64,000 nt of DNA from Pyrinomonadaceae bacterium (lineage in GTDB: Bacteria > Acidobacteriota > Blastocatellia > Pyrinomonadales > Pyrinomonadaceae): positions 28,174 through 92,173 of the forward strand of contig DASYKT010000009.1 in assembly GCA_035995185.1 (NCBI GenBank), in the 5' to 3' direction. Under the pieces are notes generated by a model. The model saw only the letters and a list, made by a program, of their open reading frames with translations, did not search any database and was not told where the DNA came from. The stretch's first letter is position 1; the number at the start of each line of letters is the position of its first letter. The position numbers were made by a program, and so were the translations under genes. Positions 21,805 through 34,555 of this stretch are shown here, piece by piece.

Positions 21805-23292
21805 ATGAGATTTTTTACTACCTTGCGCGCAAAGTTGTTGATAGTTATGGGGATACTCCTCGTAACGACTCTCAGTGTGCAGTATTACCTTAATGTCCGC
21901 CGCGAAACCAGCAGCAAAAGGCTTAACGACCGCCAGCAGCAGGCCCTGGTCGTGGGACTGACCTTAGGGGTCAGCGGCATCACTTCCCGGGACGAACTGA
22001 GCCAGCTGGTGGAAAAGGCCAGAGACACGCTTTATGACAAGTACACGGACCGGCGCCTAAAAGACATTATTATTATCAACTCCGATTGGGAGATCTATGA
22101 CACTCTTAATCCGGAATATAAGCCTACCAAGGACGCGGATGGAAATACGGTATTTAAAAAACTCGGTGAGATCCAAAATCTGCCGCCTTTAAGAGACGCG
22201 GACAGGCTGGGCGAAGCGAGCAGGAACTTTCCGAATGCGACCGGCGAAGATACCGATAGCGCGCAGCAGGAAGCCTATGCCATCCCCGTGCAAACCACCC
22301 AGGGCGTCTGGCATATCATGGTGATATTGAATGTGACCCCGATGGAAACCGCCCGGCGCGACGCTATTTTGCCGGTAGTGTACACCTTGGGCATTCTGCT
22401 GGCGTCGAGCATTATCGCGATCGTGCTGGTCTGGCGTTTTACCAAGCCGATCAGAAATCTTTCGGATGCGGCCAAACAGGTGGCGGAGGGCGACCTGCAG
22501 GTCCGCGTGGCGGACCATAAAAGAAGCGATGAAGTGGGCCTGCTGGCGCAAAGGTTCAATGAAATGACCGCCGAGCTCGAGAAATCGCGCGAACTCGAAT
22601 CACAGCTTCAGGAAGCGGAAAAATCCGCGGTGGTCGGGCGGCTTGCTTCGGCCATCGCCCACGAGATCAGAAATCCGCTCAATTACATCAATCTCACGCT
22701 CGATCATCTGCGGGCCAAATTCATTCCCGACGACAAGGAAAAACGCGAGATGTTTGAGCAGCTGACCTCGCAGCTCAAGTCGGAGGTGGGCCGGATAAAT
22801 AATCAGATCAGCGATTTCCTGCGCTATTCGCGCCCGCTGAACCTCGACCTGCAGCCGGTAAATATTCGCGAGGTAATAGATAACTCGATGCTGCTGGTTC
22901 AGGGACAGGCGGAAGGATTGGGCATTTCGACCTCCGTCAACGAACCTCCCGGCACACCGCCGGTGCTGGGCGATCGCGATGTTTTACGCTCGGTCTTTAA
23001 TAATCTTTTTATCAATGCGGTGCAGGCGATGGAAACGTCGGGCGGTTCACTGTCGGTGGATCTTGTTCCGAACGGTGAATTTGTCGAGATACATGTCAAA
23101 GACACCGGCTGCGCCATCCCCGAAGAAAATCTGCCCAAAATATTCGAACCGTATTTTTCCACCAAGGAAACCGGCACCGGCCTCGGGCTGGCGATCGCCA
23201 AACGCATAGTCGATAAACACAGCGGAACGATCGAGGTCACTTCTTCCCCAAATGACGGGACGCAGTTCAACATTAAATTGCCAAAGGCATAA
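21805..23292 (+). CDS. sensor histidine kinase (TM-HAMP-HisKA-HATPase; NtrB/AtoS-like)
   Basis: HAMP (PIRNLSDAAKQVAEGDL), H-box SAIAHEIRNPLN, and N/G boxes (NLFINAVQA, DTGCAIP, GTGLGLAIAKRIV). Confidence 0.85.
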   Translation: MRFFTTLRAKLLIVMGILLVTTLSVQYYLNVRRETSSKRLNDRQQQALVVGLTLGVSGITSRDELSQLVEKARDTLYDKYTDRRLKDIIIINSDWEIYDTLNPEYKPTKDADGNTVFKKLGEIQNLPPLRDADRLGEASRNFPNATGEDTDSAQQEAYAIPVQTTQGVWHIMVILNVTPMETARRDAILPVVYTLGILLASSIIAIVLVWRFTKPIRNLSDAAKQVAEGDLQVRVADHKRSDEVGLLAQRFNEMTAELEKSRELESQLQEAEKSAVVGRLASAIAHEIRNPLNYINLTLDHLRAKFIPDDKEKREMFEQLTSQLKSEVGRINNQISDFLRYSRPLNLDLQPVNIREVIDNSMLLVQGQAEGLGISTSVNEPPGTPPVLGDRDVLRSVFNNLFINAVQAMETSGGSLSVDLVPNGEFVEIHVKDTGCAIPEENLPKIFEPYFSTKETGTGLGLAIAKRIVDKHSGTIEVTSSPNDGTQFNIKLPKA

Positions 23293-23393: not shown

Positions 23394-24255
23394 TTACCGC
23401 GCGGACCTTAGCTCATCGACCATCGCCCTCGCTCCTGCGATATCGCCGCGGTAGACTATCTTTCCCTGCCGGTCGATCACCAATGTGGTCGGGTATACTT
23501 TTACGCCGAGTTTCTCCGGCAGTTCTTCGTCAGCAGCGACCGCCACCGGAAATGTATAACCTTCTTCCCGGATAACTTCAAAAGCTTCGCCGGGGCTTAT
23601 CTTCTTCGATCGGTTTATCAATAGCGAAAACTACCACGGAAGGGTCGGACTTCAGCTTATCAAAGGCGGATTGAACTTGGGGAAATTTTTCAAAACATGC
23701 TCCGCAGCGCGTGAACCAGAAGTCAAGCAAAACCACCTTACCGTTAAAGTCATTCTCAGTAATAGTATTTTTCTGCTCGTCGAATGCCTCGAATTTTACC
23801 GGCAATTCATAAGCAGCAACTCTACCGGTGAAAGTTCCGTAATTCCGCTCGTTAAACCAAAAATCGTATCCCTGAAAATACATAAAAACAACGATGACAC
23901 AACATAATGTTAAAGGAAGCAGATCAAACGGCCTTTTTATTTTCCAATAAAACAATCCGCAGACTATACCTAAAGTATGAAGTAACATATCGGGCAAAGT
24001 TCCCAGGGTGCCTTCAAAATGGGTAATTCTAATGGGTAACTGAAGCAGCCATAACCCCAAAAGCAAAGCACTGAAAATCTGCCAGTCGGTTAATCTGCTT
24101 TTGAATACTTTGAGGCAGAATAATGTCAGATATAAATAAGCGACAAATCCAATCAACGATGATTCCTGAATGCTTCTAAAGCCCCTTAAGGGAGATATCG
24201 CAACCATCAAAACTAAAGAAATAATAACGATCAGGAATGCGCTTTTATATTTCAT
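23394..24255 (-). pseudogene. membrane-anchored TlpA/thioredoxin-like oxidoreductase, disrupted by a 1-nt frameshift (paralog of 24279-25142)
   Basis: ORFs 23578-24255 and 23394-23621 together align end to end with the intact neighbour. Removing one base from the G4 run at 23592-23595 (plus strand) restores ...DKPGEAFEVIREEGYTFPVAV... The CxxC motif is CGAC. Confidence 0.7.
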
Positions 24256-24278
24256 ACATGCGTCAGTAAACTCTAAAT

Positions 24279-25142
24279 TTACCTACCGCGTAATTCATCG
24301 ACCATCGCCGCCGCTCCTGCGATATCGCCGCGATAGACGATCTTTCCCTGCCGGTCGATCACCAAGGTGGTCGGGTATACTTTTACGCCGAGTTTTTCCG
24401 GCAGTTCTTCGTTACCGGCGACCGCTACCGGAAATGTGTAGCCTTCTTCGCGGATAATGCTAAAGGCCTCGCCGGGCTTATCGTCCTTGATAGGCTTATC
24501 GACTGCCATGATCTTTACCGAAGCGTCATCTTTATATCTATCGTAAGCTGCCTGGACCTGCGGAAATTTCTCAAAACAGATGCCGCAGCCGGTATACCAA
24601 AAATCCAGTAAGGCGATCTTGCCGTTAAGATCGTTTTCACTAATGATATTTTTCTGTTCGTCAAACGCTTCGAATTTCGCCGGCAGAGCGTAAGCCTCGA
24701 CCCGCCCGGTAAAAGTGCCGTAATTTAACTTATCGAGCCATCGATCATAGCCCTGGAAATACATATAAACGGGAACGATGGAGCAAAGTACCAGCGCGGC
24801 AAAATTTAAGGGCCTTTTCATCCGCCAATACAGCGCGCCGCAAATTACTCCCAATGAGTGTATCAGTGTGTCCGGCAATGAAATTAGTGTGCTGCTAAAA
24901 AGCCATATTCTTATGGGAATTTGAAAAAACCACAATCCGATCATTAACGCCAAAACGATCAGCCCGGTATTTAAATGTTTTTCATACCGGTAAATGCAAA
25001 ACATTGTCAGGTATACTTCCAGCACAAAACCAACCAGTGAGGAAACCGCGAACCCCCCTCCATAACTACTTCGTAATGGAGTGATAACCAGGAAAAGAAC
25101 CAGTGAGAAAGCAAAAATCTTTAAAAATGATCTGATCTTCAT
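24279..25142 (-). CDS. membrane-anchored TlpA-like thiol-disulfide oxidoreductase
   Basis: 287 aa with about 5 N-terminal TM spans. The thioredoxin fold carries LLDFWYTGCGICFEKFP (CxxC) and VYPTTLVIDRQGKIV. Confidence 0.7.
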   Translation of the reverse strand: MKIRSFLKIFAFSLVLFLVITPLRSSYGGGFAVSSLVGFVLEVYLTMFCIYRYEKHLNTGLIVLALMIGLWFFQIPIRIWLFSSTLISLPDTLIHSLGVICGALYWRMKRPLNFAALVLCSIVPVYMYFQGYDRWLDKLNYGTFTGRVEAYALPAKFEAFDEQKNIISENDLNGKIALLDFWYTGCGICFEKFPQVQAAYDRYKDDASVKIMAVDKPIKDDKPGEAFSIIREEGYTFPVAVAGNEELPEKLGVKVYPTTLVIDRQGKIVYRGDIAGAAAMVDELRGR

Positions 25143-25159
25143 AACTTTTTATTCGCAAT

Positions 25160-25318
25160 GAGTCAGTACCGGGAACGTAGTGACCGGCTTTCTTTAATGA
25201 CGAACGATTAATGATTAGTGATTAATGAAGATATGTCCTGATAATGATGCCATTTATCACTAATCATTATTTACTATCAGCTAAAACCAGCCGGTCACTG
25301 CGTTCCCGGTACTGACTC
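25160..25318. repeat. family E palindromic element (E1), with a nested inner palindrome
   Basis: The outer arms are GAGTCAGTACCGGGAACGTAGTGACCGGCT ... AGCCGGTCACTGCGTTCCCGGTACTGACTC. The inner arms are AATGATTAGTGAT ... ATCACTAATCATT. Confidence 0.8.
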
Positions 25319-25379
25319 GTTATTTTTTTGACTTCAAAGGGGCGCGGGACGACGAATGCCGTACCGCGCCCTTTAAACA

Positions 25380-26389
25380 CTACGGGTTATAACATGCAAC
25401 GCCATTACACTCCTGGAAGAAAAATGCCCCGCAGCCTGTTATAAGATATTTGCAAATATTTCCGGCACATATTCCAAACCAGCATTGATCCCCTTCTCCG
25501 CGATGACAAGTACACTTGTTCAAAACAGGGAGAGGCGTTCCCTCCGTGGAAATTGTCGTCCCTGCCTTTTGTGGTTCTCCCAGCCTTGCCACCAGATTTC
25601 CGGCCTCTTCTTTAGAAAATGCCTGCAAAGCCTTATCAGTTAGCACAGTCAAAGGTTTGCCGACCTTTGCCTCCCACTGTGCATCTTTAGGACTCAATTC
25701 AAAGACTTCTAAAGTCATAAAATCCAGCACATCTGTAATAAAGCTTTTCTGAGAGGCAGTCAGATCAAGTGCCCTGCCAGATAGAGAGCAATATGAACTC
25801 TCCACAGATCACGTTTTTCCTCAGCGGTTGATTCTCTAAAAACCTCTTTTCTCTGCAGGTCATTTAGCGGAGTCAAATCTTCATATTTCTGGAGCATGAA
25901 GATATCGTCCTTGGTGGGGCCGAGATTTGCAAAAATCTCGAAGCGCTCTCTACCTTGAAACAGGGCTTTAGCCCTGCTGTCCAGTAAGATCGCTGTTTGC
26001 TCGGCTGCCGCTTGTTTTGCCGTATCGGTGTCACTGTATGAATCGGCCGTTAACATCGAGAGGCCATCGAGCAGCAGCGCCTTTTGCTCCGCCGTCAGGC
26101 CCGGACGCTTTACCAATTGAAAGGCAATATGGAATTTCATGACCGCCGCTCTGCTTTCGGGGGAAAGGCTGCGGAACATCCTTTGCATTTCCAGCATCCC
26201 TAAGCCCGAAAAGCTTAAATATTGCCCGATAACGCTGGTATTTGCCGCCTTTTGCGGCGTGTCATTTTTTGCCGCTTCTGCTGCGGCTGTTTTTTGCGCG
26301 TAGCTGTGCTGGGCAAAAATACTCATGACGCACAGAAGCATTCCGAATACTGATATTAAATTGTTCTTTCTCACTTGGCTTACCTCCAA
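25380..26389 (-). pseudogene. secreted fulvocin-C-related bacteriocin precursor-like protein, split by a 1-nt frameshift
   Basis: ORF 25760-26389 carries the signal peptide plus a helical pro-region. ORF 25380-25805 continues the same repeat pattern (LTAEQKALLLDGLSML / LTASQKSFITDVLDFM). It ends in the 8-Cys domain CTCHRGEGDQCWFGICAGNICKYLITGCGAFFFQECNGVACYNP. The frames join if one base is added to the C3 run at 25772-25774. Confidence 0.5.
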
Positions 26390-31501: not shown

Positions 31502-33460
31502 ATGGACCAAAAAGTGAAACACGCGATCTTTTTTTTAATACTGGTTTTATTTACCTTCTCGTCTGTCGGCGCGCAGATGGCGCGCAAGCCGACGCCGACG
31601 CGCGAACCAAAAGGCGCTATGCCTGCCCGACCCGATTCGAAGGACCGTTCCCTGCCGGCGATCAAGACCCAGGAAGATTTTGATTCCATTGCCCGCACTT
31701 ATCACCAAGGCACCCCTTTTGCATTGCCTCATCTGATGTTTGTCATCGACCGCAAGAACGCGAACAAGATCTATTACGTTAATTCCCAGCGCTACCGTTT
31801 TCATAAAGATTTCCTGCTGGCCAATTACCTGATACCGCGCGGGACCGATATTTTTAAGACCGTGTACGCTACCGATAAAAGGCGCTTTATAGTGGGCACC
31901 ATCGCCTGGCAAAAGCCGGTCGAAAAATATACCTGGGAACTCTGGGAAGGCGATCTCGCCTCACCCATGCTAATCAAACTGACTCACGGCGTTATCAGCA
32001 AAACCTTTTTCCAGCCGGTTTCTTATAAACCCAACTCGATCCGCCAGGAAGACGCCTCGGCAAACCTGAAGATCCCGCGCATGTCGCAGGATGAAATAAC
32101 CAAAAATCAGGAATATCTCGCACTCAACACGGGCACGGCGATCGGGCGCATTCATATCATTGAAAAACTGGACGACACGGTCGAGGTCGGTTCTAACGAG
32201 ATACTGGTGATAAAAGAGCTGCCGCTTTCTCTGCCGCAGGTCAGGGGCGTGATCGTGGCTAAATCGTCCACGCCGTTATCGCATATCAACATTCTCGCGC
32301 GCGGCTGGGGCATTCCGAACGTCTATATCAAGGACGCCGACAAACTCTTTAAGGAATATGACACCCGCTGGGTCAAATTTCAGGCCAACCTGACGGATTA
32401 CAAAACCATTCTGGCCGATAAGCCGATCCTCGATGAAGGCGGCGACGAATCTCCGGTGATACCGCCAGTGAATCTGGAGGTTAAAAAGCTGGCCGGGCTG
32501 CATGAGATGCGGCAAAAAGACAGCATCGCCTTCGGTTCAAAATCCGCCAATCTCGGCGAGATGATCAACAGCACCTTAAGCAGCGCGACCGTGCCTGACG
32601 GGTTCACGATCCCCTTCTACTGGTATGACAAATTTATAAAAGACAATAAATTCGACGAGATCATCGAAGAATTCGAAGACGATAATGATTTTGTTCATAA
32701 CCCGAGCATCCGCCGCAAGCGGCTGGAAGAGTTTCGCGCCAAACTTAGGGCGGGAAAATTCGACGAAACCCTGCGGCAGGAATTGATCTCTAAATGGAAA
32801 ACACAGCTCGGCGGAAAAGTTGTTTTTGTCCGCAGCTCGTCAAATTCCGAAGACCTGCCGAATTTTAGCGGGGCCGGACTTTATTCAAGTGAACCGAATG
32901 TAGTGGACGAAGAGGCCCTGATCAATGCGGTCAGGAAAGTTTGGGCCTCGCTCTGGAATTTTCAGGCCTACGAAGCGCGCGTACGAAATTTTGTCAGCCA
33001 AAAAGACGTCTACATGTCGGCGCTGGTCCAGCTCGGCGTTAACATGGACCGCGGCGGGGTGATGGTCACCAAGGACCCCTTTGACGACGAAAGCAAAAAC
33101 AACGTCTATATCAGCGCGGTCTGCGGCCACAACACAAAGGTCACGGATAATGACGGGATTCCCGAACAGATCCTGTTTAACCCTAAGTCGAATTCGGTGA
33201 TCCTGATGACCCGCTCGCAGCAGAAAGTGGCGTTGACCTTCGATATCAAAAGCGGCGGGCTGCGGGAAACCGCCGACATTTGCGCCAATAAACAAACCAA
33301 ACGGGTCTTGACCAACATTCAGGCCAGAGCGCTGGCAAAAACGGCGATGGATATCAAGCATATTTTTGGCGGCAAGAGAGAGCAGGATATCGAGTGGGGT
33401 ATAATGGCGGGACAAATTTATATCGTGCAGGCGCGCCCTTATATCGAGAAAAAGAATTAG
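31502..33460 (+). CDS. PEP/pyruvate-binding (PPDK_N ATP-grasp) protein with a preceding PEP-utiliser swivel domain and an N-terminal signal/anchor
   Basis: The start is moved to MDQKVKHAIFF because the track start lies inside repeat A3. The swivel His motif is AKSSTPLSHINILARGWGIPNV. The ATP-grasp motifs AFGSKSANLGEM and VRSSSNSEDLPNFSGAGLY come after it. Confidence 0.7.
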   Translation: MDQKVKHAIFFLILVLFTFSSVGAQMARKPTPTREPKGAMPARPDSKDRSLPAIKTQEDFDSIARTYHQGTPFALPHLMFVIDRKNANKIYYVNSQRYRFHKDFLLANYLIPRGTDIFKTVYATDKRRFIVGTIAWQKPVEKYTWELWEGDLASPMLIKLTHGVISKTFFQPVSYKPNSIRQEDASANLKIPRMSQDEITKNQEYLALNTGTAIGRIHIIEKLDDTVEVGSNEILVIKELPLSLPQVRGVIVAKSSTPLSHINILARGWGIPNVYIKDADKLFKEYDTRWVKFQANLTDYKTILADKPILDEGGDESPVIPPVNLEVKKLAGLHEMRQKDSIAFGSKSANLGEMINSTLSSATVPDGFTIPFYWYDKFIKDNKFDEIIEEFEDDNDFVHNPSIRRKRLEEFRAKLRAGKFDETLRQELISKWKTQLGGKVVFVRSSSNSEDLPNFSGAGLYSSEPNVVDEEALINAVRKVWASLWNFQAYEARVRNFVSQKDVYMSALVQLGVNMDRGGVMVTKDPFDDESKNNVYISAVCGHNTKVTDNDGIPEQILFNPKSNSVILMTRSQQKVALTFDIKSGGLRETADICANKQTKRVLTNIQARALAKTAMDIKHIFGGKREQDIEWGIMAGQIYIVQARPYIEKKN

Positions 33461-33465
33461 GTTTT

Positions 33466-33996
33466 ATGAAATATTTTTTGTTTTTAAGTTTATCCGCGAT
33501 ATTTTTAGCTGGCTGTGCCGGTAATACCGCCCGGCTTCAAACGGCGAATCAGCCGGCCGCCCAAAACACCCCCACCGGCAAACGCGATGAGCTTTCCGCC
33601 ATCAGCCATTCGGCCGACAACCGCTTTCAGCCGACGAACATTCCGGTAAATGATAATTCGGGTTCCGGCAGCGGTGTCTCGCCGATGTCGCGGCCGATAG
33701 ATGTCAGCGCGATGAACGCCGATATCCAAAAAGCCGAAAAGAATCATGAAAAGGACCCCAAAGATGCTCAGGCGAAAAAAGACCTGGCGCACGCTTATTT
33801 CGTCCGGGCCTTTGCACTGACCGAGGCCGCGCAGTACCGCGCCGCCCTGGGTGATTTTCGCAAGGGATTAAAACTCGATCCTGACGATGAAGAAGCCAGG
33901 AAAATGCACGACCAGATCATCAGCATTTTCAAAAGCATCGGCCGCGAACCGCCCAAAGAAGGCGAAGAACCTCCCCCGCTGCCGTCCGGTAATTAA
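33466..33996 (+). CDS. lipoprotein with TPR-like helix pair
   Basis: The start is moved to MKYFLFLSLSAIFLAG-C (lipobox). The upstream part of the track ORF overlaps the previous gene. Confidence 0.55.
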   Translation: MKYFLFLSLSAIFLAGCAGNTARLQTANQPAAQNTPTGKRDELSAISHSADNRFQPTNIPVNDNSGSGSGVSPMSRPIDVSAMNADIQKAEKNHEKDPKDAQAKKDLAHAYFVRAFALTEAAQYRAALGDFRKGLKLDPDDEEARKMHDQIISIFKSIGREPPKEGEEPPPLPSGN

Positions 33997-34008
33997 TAAA
34001 AGATGGAC

Positions 34009-34102
34009 GTTTCGTGCATTTCGTGTGATTCGTGGTTACTGCTTTGATGTTAATAATAAAACTTTAGAAAATTTAACCACGAATCACACGAAATGCACGA
34101 AA
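34009..34102. repeat. family B palindromic element (B3), perfect 29-bp arms
   Basis: CGTTTCGTGCATTTCGTGTGATTCGTGGTTA ... TTAACCACGAATCACACGAAATGCACGAAAG. Confidence 0.85.
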
Positions 34103-34165
34103 GTTTGTACGCCATACTTTACATCATCTGATCATAAAGTGATTTGTAGTAAAACCAATAAGATT

Positions 34166-34555
34166 ATGAAAAGGCTTTTTCTATTGACGGTTATATCGGC
34201 GTTATTACTCGTCTCCGCCGCGTTTGCCCAGAAAGCGCAGCGCATAACCTTCAAACGCGGGGCAAAACAGGCGATCGCAAGCGGGACTTTGTATAGCTAT
34301 AAGGGACAGCGGGTTTATGTGATCCGCGTGCGCGCCGGGCAGATATTAAAGACCGAGCAAGTGGGTGAAGGCCACGCGATCACCATTGCCGTTATCGACC
34401 CTCATGGCGAGATCGCCGCCGATTTCGATGCGTCCTGCAACAATCGCAAACAAACGGAAGAAACGATGGCCGGCGACTATAAAATAATCGTCAGCGAATG
34501 CAGCAAGGCTGACGCGTGGCGCGGGACGTTCAGATTTAAAGTGAGAATCGAATAA
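34166..34555 (+). CDS. small secreted hypothetical protein
   Basis: The start is moved to MKRLFLLTVISALLLVSAAFA (signal peptide). The upstream track extension runs through repeat B3. Confidence 0.55.
   Translation: MKRLFLLTVISALLLVSAAFAQKAQRITFKRGAKQAIASGTLYSYKGQRVYVIRVRAGQILKTEQVGEGHAITIAVIDPHGEIAADFDASCNNRKQTEETMAGDYKIIVSECSKADAWRGTFRFKVRIE

Follow-up and report, generated by a model that had tools for sequence, protein, structure and literature searches.

A fulvocin C-related precursor gene paired with a membrane redoxin: a cassette of soil Acidobacteria and some Bacteroidota, and its apparently decaying copy in a Pyrinomonadaceae genome

The stretch of DNA analysed here (the window) covers 64 kb of a genome that the names of homologues place in Pyrinomonadaceae (Acidobacteriota) and carries, on the minus strand at positions 23394-26389, three co-oriented genes: a gene for what appears to be the precursor of a fulvocin C-related bacteriocin, followed by genes for two membrane-anchored thioredoxin-like proteins, redoxin A and its paralog redoxin B. 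This arrangement, first described in an earlier reading of the letters alone (the sequence-only reading), is present in the list of open reading frames (ORFs). As we detail below, the pairing of a fulvocin-type precursor with a membrane redoxin is real, and the cassette is common to soil Acidobacteria and some Bacteroidota. The window probably holds a degenerate copy of this conserved, movable two-gene cassette, and we tentatively favour the reading in which the redoxin most likely serves the precursor as a dedicated disulfide-forming or disulfide-isomerising factor.

Pairing of fulvocin-type precursors with the redoxin

With redoxin A as the query, matches were obtained in 12 of 151 Pyrinomonadaceae genomes, and at every locus a double-module, eight-cysteine precursor gene lies directly upstream on the same strand. 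When first-position redoxin genes are collected from Pyrinomonadaceae genomes and one metagenome contig (L085), 23 out of 23 stand directly behind a precursor gene, and the pair is kept at 40-90% identity across many genera; on the metagenome contig, precursor and redoxin are the only genes between a regulator and a kinase. Outside this set are two second-in-tandem copies, both broken (redoxin B of the window and one in genome G415), and one fragment. No redoxin-only locus was found in Pyrinomonadaceae. The two partners differ in their state of preservation: of the 23 pairs, 13 lack an intact precursor (eight through stops or frameshifts, five through an A9 tract) and two lack an intact redoxin.

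Approached from the other side, with a profile of the precursor, 43 of 401 Pyrinomonadaceae genomes carry a precursor gene. At the 28 precursor loci with enough flanking sequence, the redoxin is present 17 times (about 60%), a small protein with three to four transmembrane (TM) helices lies downstream in three cases, and the remainder have nothing obvious. The dependency in Pyrinomonadaceae is asymmetric: the redoxin is never seen without the toxin gene, whereas the toxin gene can lack the redoxin. Among single-module relatives elsewhere in the phylum, the downstream slot is mostly taken by small polytopic membrane proteins, one family of which recurs across lineages; in the loci examined, such small TM partners and the redoxin never occur together. 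An unnamed four-TM family of ~130-145 amino acids (aa) with no Pfam match turns up repeatedly in the position directly after a fulvocin-type gene, in various lineages of Acidobacteriota (L002 2036-2422, L062 958-1389, L071 2639-3058 and L087 4674-5072). Kinship between the TM domain of the redoxin and the small four-TM partner family was considered and rejected (hhalign probability 0.2%).

The association extends to a second phylum. The toxin family was detected in 6 of 401 sampled Bacteroidota genomes, and at three of the seven fulvocin-type loci a polytopic membrane-TlpA fusion follows immediately downstream; this protein aligns along almost the whole of the acidobacterial redoxin model and shares its LDFW..CG.CF.KFP motif. 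The co-occurrence for which the sequence-only reading had called for a neighbourhood survey is borne out both in Pyrinomonadaceae and in Bacteroidota. Two further candidate pairs were discarded: a Flavobacterium TlpA (P0093) was found unpaired, and a one-TM CLAC protein downstream of the G028 precursor has an AhpC-TSA match that is weak and below the cut-off.

The cassette in the window

The three genes comprise the following features.

25760-26374, minus strand: 5' piece of the precursor gene, with the signal peptide, the first helical pro-module and most of the second, ending in a premature TGA (25760-25762) caused by the frameshift (ORF list, NF033852, homologue alignment)
25766-25770, minus strand: 1-nucleotide (nt) deletion that breaks the precursor (DNA alignment with the in-frame orthologues of G423 and metagenome contig L085)
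25380-25765, minus strand: 3' piece of the precursor gene, with the remainder of the second pro-module, a linker, the eight-cysteine domain (25383-25514) and the stop codon (NF033852; conserved cysteine pattern)
24279-25142, minus strand: redoxin A, intact, 287 aa, with five TM helices and a TlpA/ResA-like thioredoxin domain; CGIC at 24576-24587 (Pfam, NCBIfam, AlphaFold2, Foldseek, family alignment)
23394-24255, minus strand: redoxin B, a frameshifted paralog with CGAC; extra C in the run 23592-23595 (ORFs, sequence, repeat families D1 and D2)

The precursor gene is split in this assembly into two ORFs, 25760-26389 (209 aa) and 25380-25805 (141 aa). As the sequence-only reading had concluded, the gene is frameshifted: comparison with in-frame orthologues indicates that exactly one base has been lost at about 25766-25770 (expected ...LAGHLDLTASQK... 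/ ...ALYLAGHLDLTASQK...), and the same DNA alignment excludes a GGG run as the site of the lesion. Translation probably starts at the GTG at 26374, seven bases past a GGAGG. The signal peptide (26297-26374; MRKNNLISVFGMLLCVMSIFAQHSYA, followed by QK) matches those of homologues in the alignment, two tandem pro-modules are marked by LTAEQK and LTASQK, and the last 44 residues, CTCHRGEGDQCWFGICAGNICKYLITGCGAFFFQECNGVACYNP, contain eight cysteines. These elements, namely a Sec signal peptide, a helical pro-region with recurring motifs and a cysteine-rich tail, had all been described from the letters alone and find support in the sequence, the homologue alignment and the AlphaFold2 model of a homologue.

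While Pfam returned no match for the precursor, both of its pieces score above the curated cut-off (35 bits) of the NCBIfam model NF033852, 'bacteriocin fulvocin C-related protein', in agreement with the proposed relatedness to fulvocin C: the 3' piece reaches 57.5 bits (positions 25-148 of the 150-position profile) and the 5' piece 45.9 bits in two stretches, which means that the helical pro-module is duplicated. The whole-genome scan gave 56.2 bits. The pattern CxC...C...C...C...GCG...C...C runs through the tail, with cysteine columns that are invariant or nearly so in three alignments (A1, A5 and A6), and relatives in other Acidobacteriota bear the same NCBI name. By its profile matches the precursor is a member of the fulvocin C-related family by descent, and it is a pseudogene in this assembly. 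The family is large: a profile search of 1.84 billion representatives yielded 2052 clusters at 50% identity with E<=1e-3, and 122 with E<=1e-30; word-indexed protein searches with the precursor reach close relatives only. An AlphaFold2 model of an intact homologue (52% identical; predicted local distance difference test score, pLDDT, of 88) shows a compact all-helical domain (residues 43-257) that a loose linker joins to a small, beta-rich domain with the cysteines. A fold search of the precursor model against the PDB found no relatives, with nothing below an E-value of ~1.

Three observations on relatives of the precursor concern its modules and its start. Downstream of a single-module precursor, a 120-aa ORF (L077 4758-5120) resembles a free-standing helical pro-module (…THVERWLAANRPRLTHEQIVVVEEIIRSISP…), with neither signal peptide nor cysteine tail. 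Many relatives begin with ATG AAC A8 C AAC (M N K K N N), in frame in L014, L016, L015 and L050. Five other loci (L012, L017, L057, L059 and L064) have A9 at this place, leaving a signal peptide with no in-frame start. The A8/A9 tract may reflect slipped-strand phase variation of the toxin gene; the precursor start in the window (GTGAGAAAGAACAAT) has no such tract.

Turning to the redoxins, the sequence-only reading had described two paralogs with five TM helices and a CxxC thioredoxin domain. This stands for redoxin A (AlphaFold2, Pfam/NCBIfam, hydropathy), whereas redoxin B proved to be frameshifted too (ORFs 23578-24255 and 23394-23621), which had gone unflagged. The two are 56% identical over the first ~220 aa and their 3' ends are 90% identical at the DNA level, which suggests that redoxin B is a separate lineage whose end has been homogenised to A rather than a fresh duplicate.

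Redoxin A exceeds the Pfam cut-offs for AhpC-TSA (51 bits) and Redoxin (46.8 bits), with no Pfam match in residues 1-150, but misses the NCBIfam equivalog cut-offs widely: 57.6 against 170 bits for ResA, 19.7 against 230 for TlpA and 33.5 against 123 for DsbE. By these scores it forms a separate subfamily, with kinship to ResA, TlpA, DsbE and StoA at the domain level only. The AlphaFold2 model (pLDDT 95) has five TM helices, in agreement with hydropathy, and a thioredoxin fold; Foldseek matched ResA, DsbE, Etrx, SdbA and TlpA, with TM-scores (a measure of fold similarity) of 0.7-0.8 to ResA and TlpA, and the best 50 matches cover the thioredoxin domain only. Across 72 homologues, C186, C189 and P257 are invariant and the CxxC motif supplies the only conserved cysteines. 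Little or no variation is seen in this motif and the cis-Pro loop, and conservation is much lower in the TM domain than in the thioredoxin domain. A VKOR/DsbB-like relay within the TM domain was rejected: TM cysteines occur in only 17-50% of homologues and form no CxxC there. The active-site motif, CG[I/A/V]C, lacks the proline of thioredoxin's CGPC, the loss of which makes such sites less reducing. Over the 72 homologues, the count of lysines and arginines in the loops is 6.4 on the cytoplasmic side as compared to 1.8 on the periplasmic side, a positive-inside distribution that places the thioredoxin domain in the periplasm. The redox domain is thus predicted to face the periplasm, outside the cytoplasm as the sequence-only reading had it. 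Besides a DsbD-type conduit for reductant, the window's own genome encodes VKOR and DsbA-like proteins.

The surroundings of the three genes add the following features.

25341-25370, minus strand: GC-rich terminator-like hairpin just past the precursor stop, kept in the G502 scar (sequence; blastn of the G502 spacer)
25157-25321, no strand assigned: palindromic repeat resembling a miniature inverted-repeat transposable element (MITE) between precursor and redoxin A, 165 nt, with 40-nt terminal inverted repeats and a nested 19-nt pair (repeat search of the window)
21805-23292, plus strand: flanking sensor histidine kinase (synteny BLAST; Pfam labels on contig L085)
26483-27895, plus strand: sigma-54-dependent response regulator, divergent from the precursor (synteny BLAST; Pfam labels on contig L085)

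In the same genome the arms of the palindromic element have 136 matches, most of them in pairs spaced by about 80-100 nt, and for this reason we read it as a MITE-like repeat. The gap between precursor and redoxin A is 237 nt in the window, as compared to anything from an overlap to about 80 nt in most relatives.

The cassette forms an insert of ~3.1 kb with low G+C content (44.6% across 24-26 kb against about 51% around it). The kinase/regulator site holds the cassette, in reverse orientation, at eight loci; synteny BLAST shows the kinase and regulator genes to be adjacent in genomes without the cassette, and the precursor-redoxin pair also occurs at other genomic sites (for instance in L030). 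In the window and 25 relatives, the sequence upstream of the precursor contains no conserved sigma-54 promoter (GG-N10-GC), a sigma-70 promoter scan was likewise negative, and an Rfam search across the block gave no match. Given the adjacency of kinase and regulator in cassette-free genomes and the missing sigma-54 promoter, the location seems to be a site of insertion, not a regulatory unit.

Within the genus of the window, the cassette is seen in several states.

G467: cassette intact
G000 (the genome of the window): cassette frameshifted
G423: cassette frameshifted, at positions other than those in the window
G502: cassette reduced to a deletion scar

The G502 scar (L041, G502:C8, 7617-8151) was delineated by blastn: the kinase-regulator spacer retains the promoter, the first ~170 nt (~58 codons) of the precursor and the terminator hairpin. 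Upstream of the intact precursor of G467, a 57-aa remnant of a redoxin C-terminus (L025 11286-11522) suggests past cassette turnover at that site. Measured against the orthologues of G423 and G467, the frameshift in the precursor is the sole one detected in the window, and we therefore read the frameshifts as real decay; redoxin B has no orthologue in these two genomes, and its break is seen directly in the sequence. The window cassette thus has the marks of a decaying copy: precursor and redoxin B are broken, a MITE lies before redoxin A, and redoxin A alone is intact. Elsewhere in the window, ORFs of 200 and 222 aa overlap on the same strand (33394-34555); the G423 orthologue of the second appears frameshifted.

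What the redoxin may do for its partner

In the mechanism that we tentatively favour, Sec would export the precursor, which would consist of two tandem all-helical pro-modules and, in its last ~45 residues, a four-disulfide antibacterial peptide of the fulvocin C type. The redoxin, encoded just downstream and presumably co-transcribed, would use its five-helix membrane domain to hold the CxxC thioredoxin domain at the periplasmic face, where the eight cysteines of the precursor encoded next to it would be its direct target. By forming or isomerising disulfides as the precursor leaves the translocon – a form of quality control – the redoxin would ensure correct folding of the knot ahead of the cleavage that frees the mature peptide. 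We infer that the precursor is the substrate of the redoxin, an action on the adjacent cysteine-rich domain that we regard as well supported, and in which direction the redox reaction runs; from the family name and by analogy with fulvocin C, we also infer antibacterial activity and proteolytic release of the tail. The sequence-only reading had named both oxidative folding and immunity as possible roles. Our slight lean towards maturation over immunity comes from the analogy with bacteroidetocin and PedC (see below), to which sublancin and the glycocins add, and immunity by reduction is nearly as likely. The missing proline of the CxxC motif also speaks for maturation, and the structural matches to the redoxin include SdbA, a TlpA-fold oxidase.

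Several observations weigh against a dedicated maturation factor. The VKOR/DsbA-like and DsbD-type systems of the genome mean that a dedicated oxidase is not obviously needed. Some complete genomes encode a double-module precursor but no such redoxin anywhere, and about 40% of double-module precursors have none, so the redoxin is not essential for folding the cysteine domain. The downstream slot is filled elsewhere in the family by small proteins with three to four TM helices, of the kind usually read as immunity proteins. The more frequent loss of an intact precursor than of an intact redoxin hints that the redoxin is useful without its own toxin. Finally, unpaired proteins with five TM helices and a TlpA domain occur in Bacteroidota, and the five-TM protein of the bacteroidetocin loci has no sequence homology to the redoxin TM domain.

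Some of these points feed the closest competitor, which we regard as quite possible: the redoxin, anchored in the inner membrane, could be the immunity protein of the cassette, its periplasmic CxxC kept reduced via a DsbD-type conduit and reducing, and so unfolding, incoming or mis-released fulvocin-type peptide in the place where that peptide acts. It occupies the very slot directly downstream of the toxin that small polytopic membrane proteins fill elsewhere, the minimal cassette has two genes only, and the housekeeping VKOR/DsbA and DsbD systems are already in place; a DsbD-like gene is present in the genome, and proteins of the TlpA/ResA type are classically reductases fed by DsbD or CcdA. 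Tandem arrays with extra redoxin copies (redoxin B of the window, G415 and G718), the better preservation of the redoxin where the precursor is broken or switched off, and a five-helix membrane domain that exceeds the needs of a mere anchor all fit such a role. We know of no redox-based self-protection of this kind described for any bacteriocin. The other bacteriocin-linked thioredoxin-like proteins have been described as production factors, none of those known having been shown to give immunity, and in a test for protection the bacteroidetocin oxidoreductase conferred none (PMC6671954). Orphan immunity genes are usually common, yet Pyrinomonadaceae have no redoxin-only locus; both second-in-tandem redoxin copies are broken; complete genomes exist in which a solo precursor has no partner; and a periplasmic reductase would threaten the producer's own toxin during export. 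In a more specific version, which we hold to be somewhat less likely, the membrane redoxin would neutralise a cystine-knot bacteriocin at the inner membrane through reduction of its disulfide bonds, and in many relatives this would be coupled to toxin genes toggled by a poly-A tract at the start codon.

It is improbable that the genes are linked but the cysteine-rich protein is not a bacteriocin, being instead a secreted protein for signalling, adhesion or metal binding, with cysteines that are tended by the redoxin much as TlpA keeps the cysteines of ScoI and CoxB in the right state. At ~250 aa the helical region is large; it lacks known fold relatives and could in its own right carry the function, and the cassette sits inside a two-component operon. 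Set against this, the curated family takes its name from a bacteriocin that was purified and whose presumed sequence aligns with the tail, and no sigma-54 promoter ties the cassette to the flanking regulator. Moreover, its patchy, strain-variable spread, low G+C content, tandem arrays, frequent pseudogenes and deletion scar are typical of competition cassettes rather than of housekeeping genes. As for accidental adjacency of two unrelated genes that share an insertion hot-spot, eight loci do share the kinase/regulator site, and a single ancestral event followed by vertical inheritance could account for much of the co-occurrence, but conservation of the pair over many genera and at other genomic sites, the lack of any family redoxin without a precursor in Pyrinomonadaceae and the related pairing in a second phylum make this highly improbable.

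Comparison with known systems

Fulvocin-type peptides are a large (over 2000 clusters) and barely studied family of disulfide-knot toxins of Gram-negative soil bacteria. The named toxin family is already known, as are bacteriocins with dedicated thioredoxin-like helpers; what seems not to have been described before is the fused five-helix/thioredoxin partner, its occurrence in two phyla and the other classes of partner. Our literature search found no link of fulvocin-type genes to a membrane TlpA-like protein, consistent with the sequence-only reading, which was aware of none. A redoxin that travels with the toxin in two phyla offers a handle for folding such peptides by co-expression, or for testing a possible new immunity mechanism. 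The copy in the window mainly shows the end of the cassette's life, the intact relatives being those of G467 and metagenome contig L085.

Among known peptides the closest is fulvocin C. When what we take to be its sequence is compared with the cysteine domain of the family, hhalign gives a probability of 97.4% (E 1e-11), a lead rather than a test. We are aware of no description of a partner gene for fulvocin C. The peptide comes from Myxococcus fulvus (Hirsch 1977; Tsai & Hirsch 1981, both as reported in PMC8708641). The window precursor shares with it a C-terminal eight-cysteine domain of ~45 aa with a CxC start and GCG...C.G.C. It differs in its acidobacterial host, in being frameshifted and in its duplicated pro-region, which brings the total to ~330 aa as compared to the 150 positions of NF033852 and the ~220-250 aa of single-module relatives.

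With TlpA, ResA, CcmG and StoA the redoxin shares the fold, the CxxC motif and the cis-Pro loop. Where these proteins have a single anchor, it has five TM helices; its W-x-T-x-CG[I/A/V]C motif has neither a tryptophan directly before the first cysteine nor the proline, and its genomic context is not one of cytochrome c or copper-delivery genes.

Thioredoxin-like accessory genes beside disulfide-containing bacteriocins, and linked to their production, are exemplified by PedC (pediocin), BdbA/BdbB (sublancin), the enzymes of glycocin clusters and BlpG (thermophilin). Those systems, however, concern other bacteriocin families in monoderm hosts, their partners are not polytopic fusions, and separate immunity genes are usual.

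There is a likeness in architecture to bacteroidetocin (class IIf, Bacteroidales), also a disulfide-bonded toxin of Gram-negative bacteria encoded beside a five-TM protein and a membrane-anchored thiol oxidoreductase. There the two are separate proteins; toxin activity requires both, and a sensitive strain gained no protection from either (Coyne et al. 2019, PMC6671954). In the cassette they are seemingly fused into one. The toxins themselves are unrelated: bacteroidetocin has 42 aa, four cysteines, a GG leader and an ATP-binding cassette (ABC)/C39 exporter, while the fulvocin-type precursor has a long pro-region and is exported by Sec. According to PMC6671954, Bacteroides has no general disulfide machinery, whereas the genome of the window has VKOR and DsbA-like proteins. 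Comparison by hhalign gives 0.2% for the bacteroidetocin five-TM protein against the redoxin TM domain and 57% (E 1e-4, a generic match) for the oxidoreductase against the thioredoxin domain, so the two architectures appear analogous, with common family membership unsupported by homology. On this comparison, the redoxin cassette would match in architecture, with a single fused protein, the pair of accessory proteins on which bacteroidetocin production depends.

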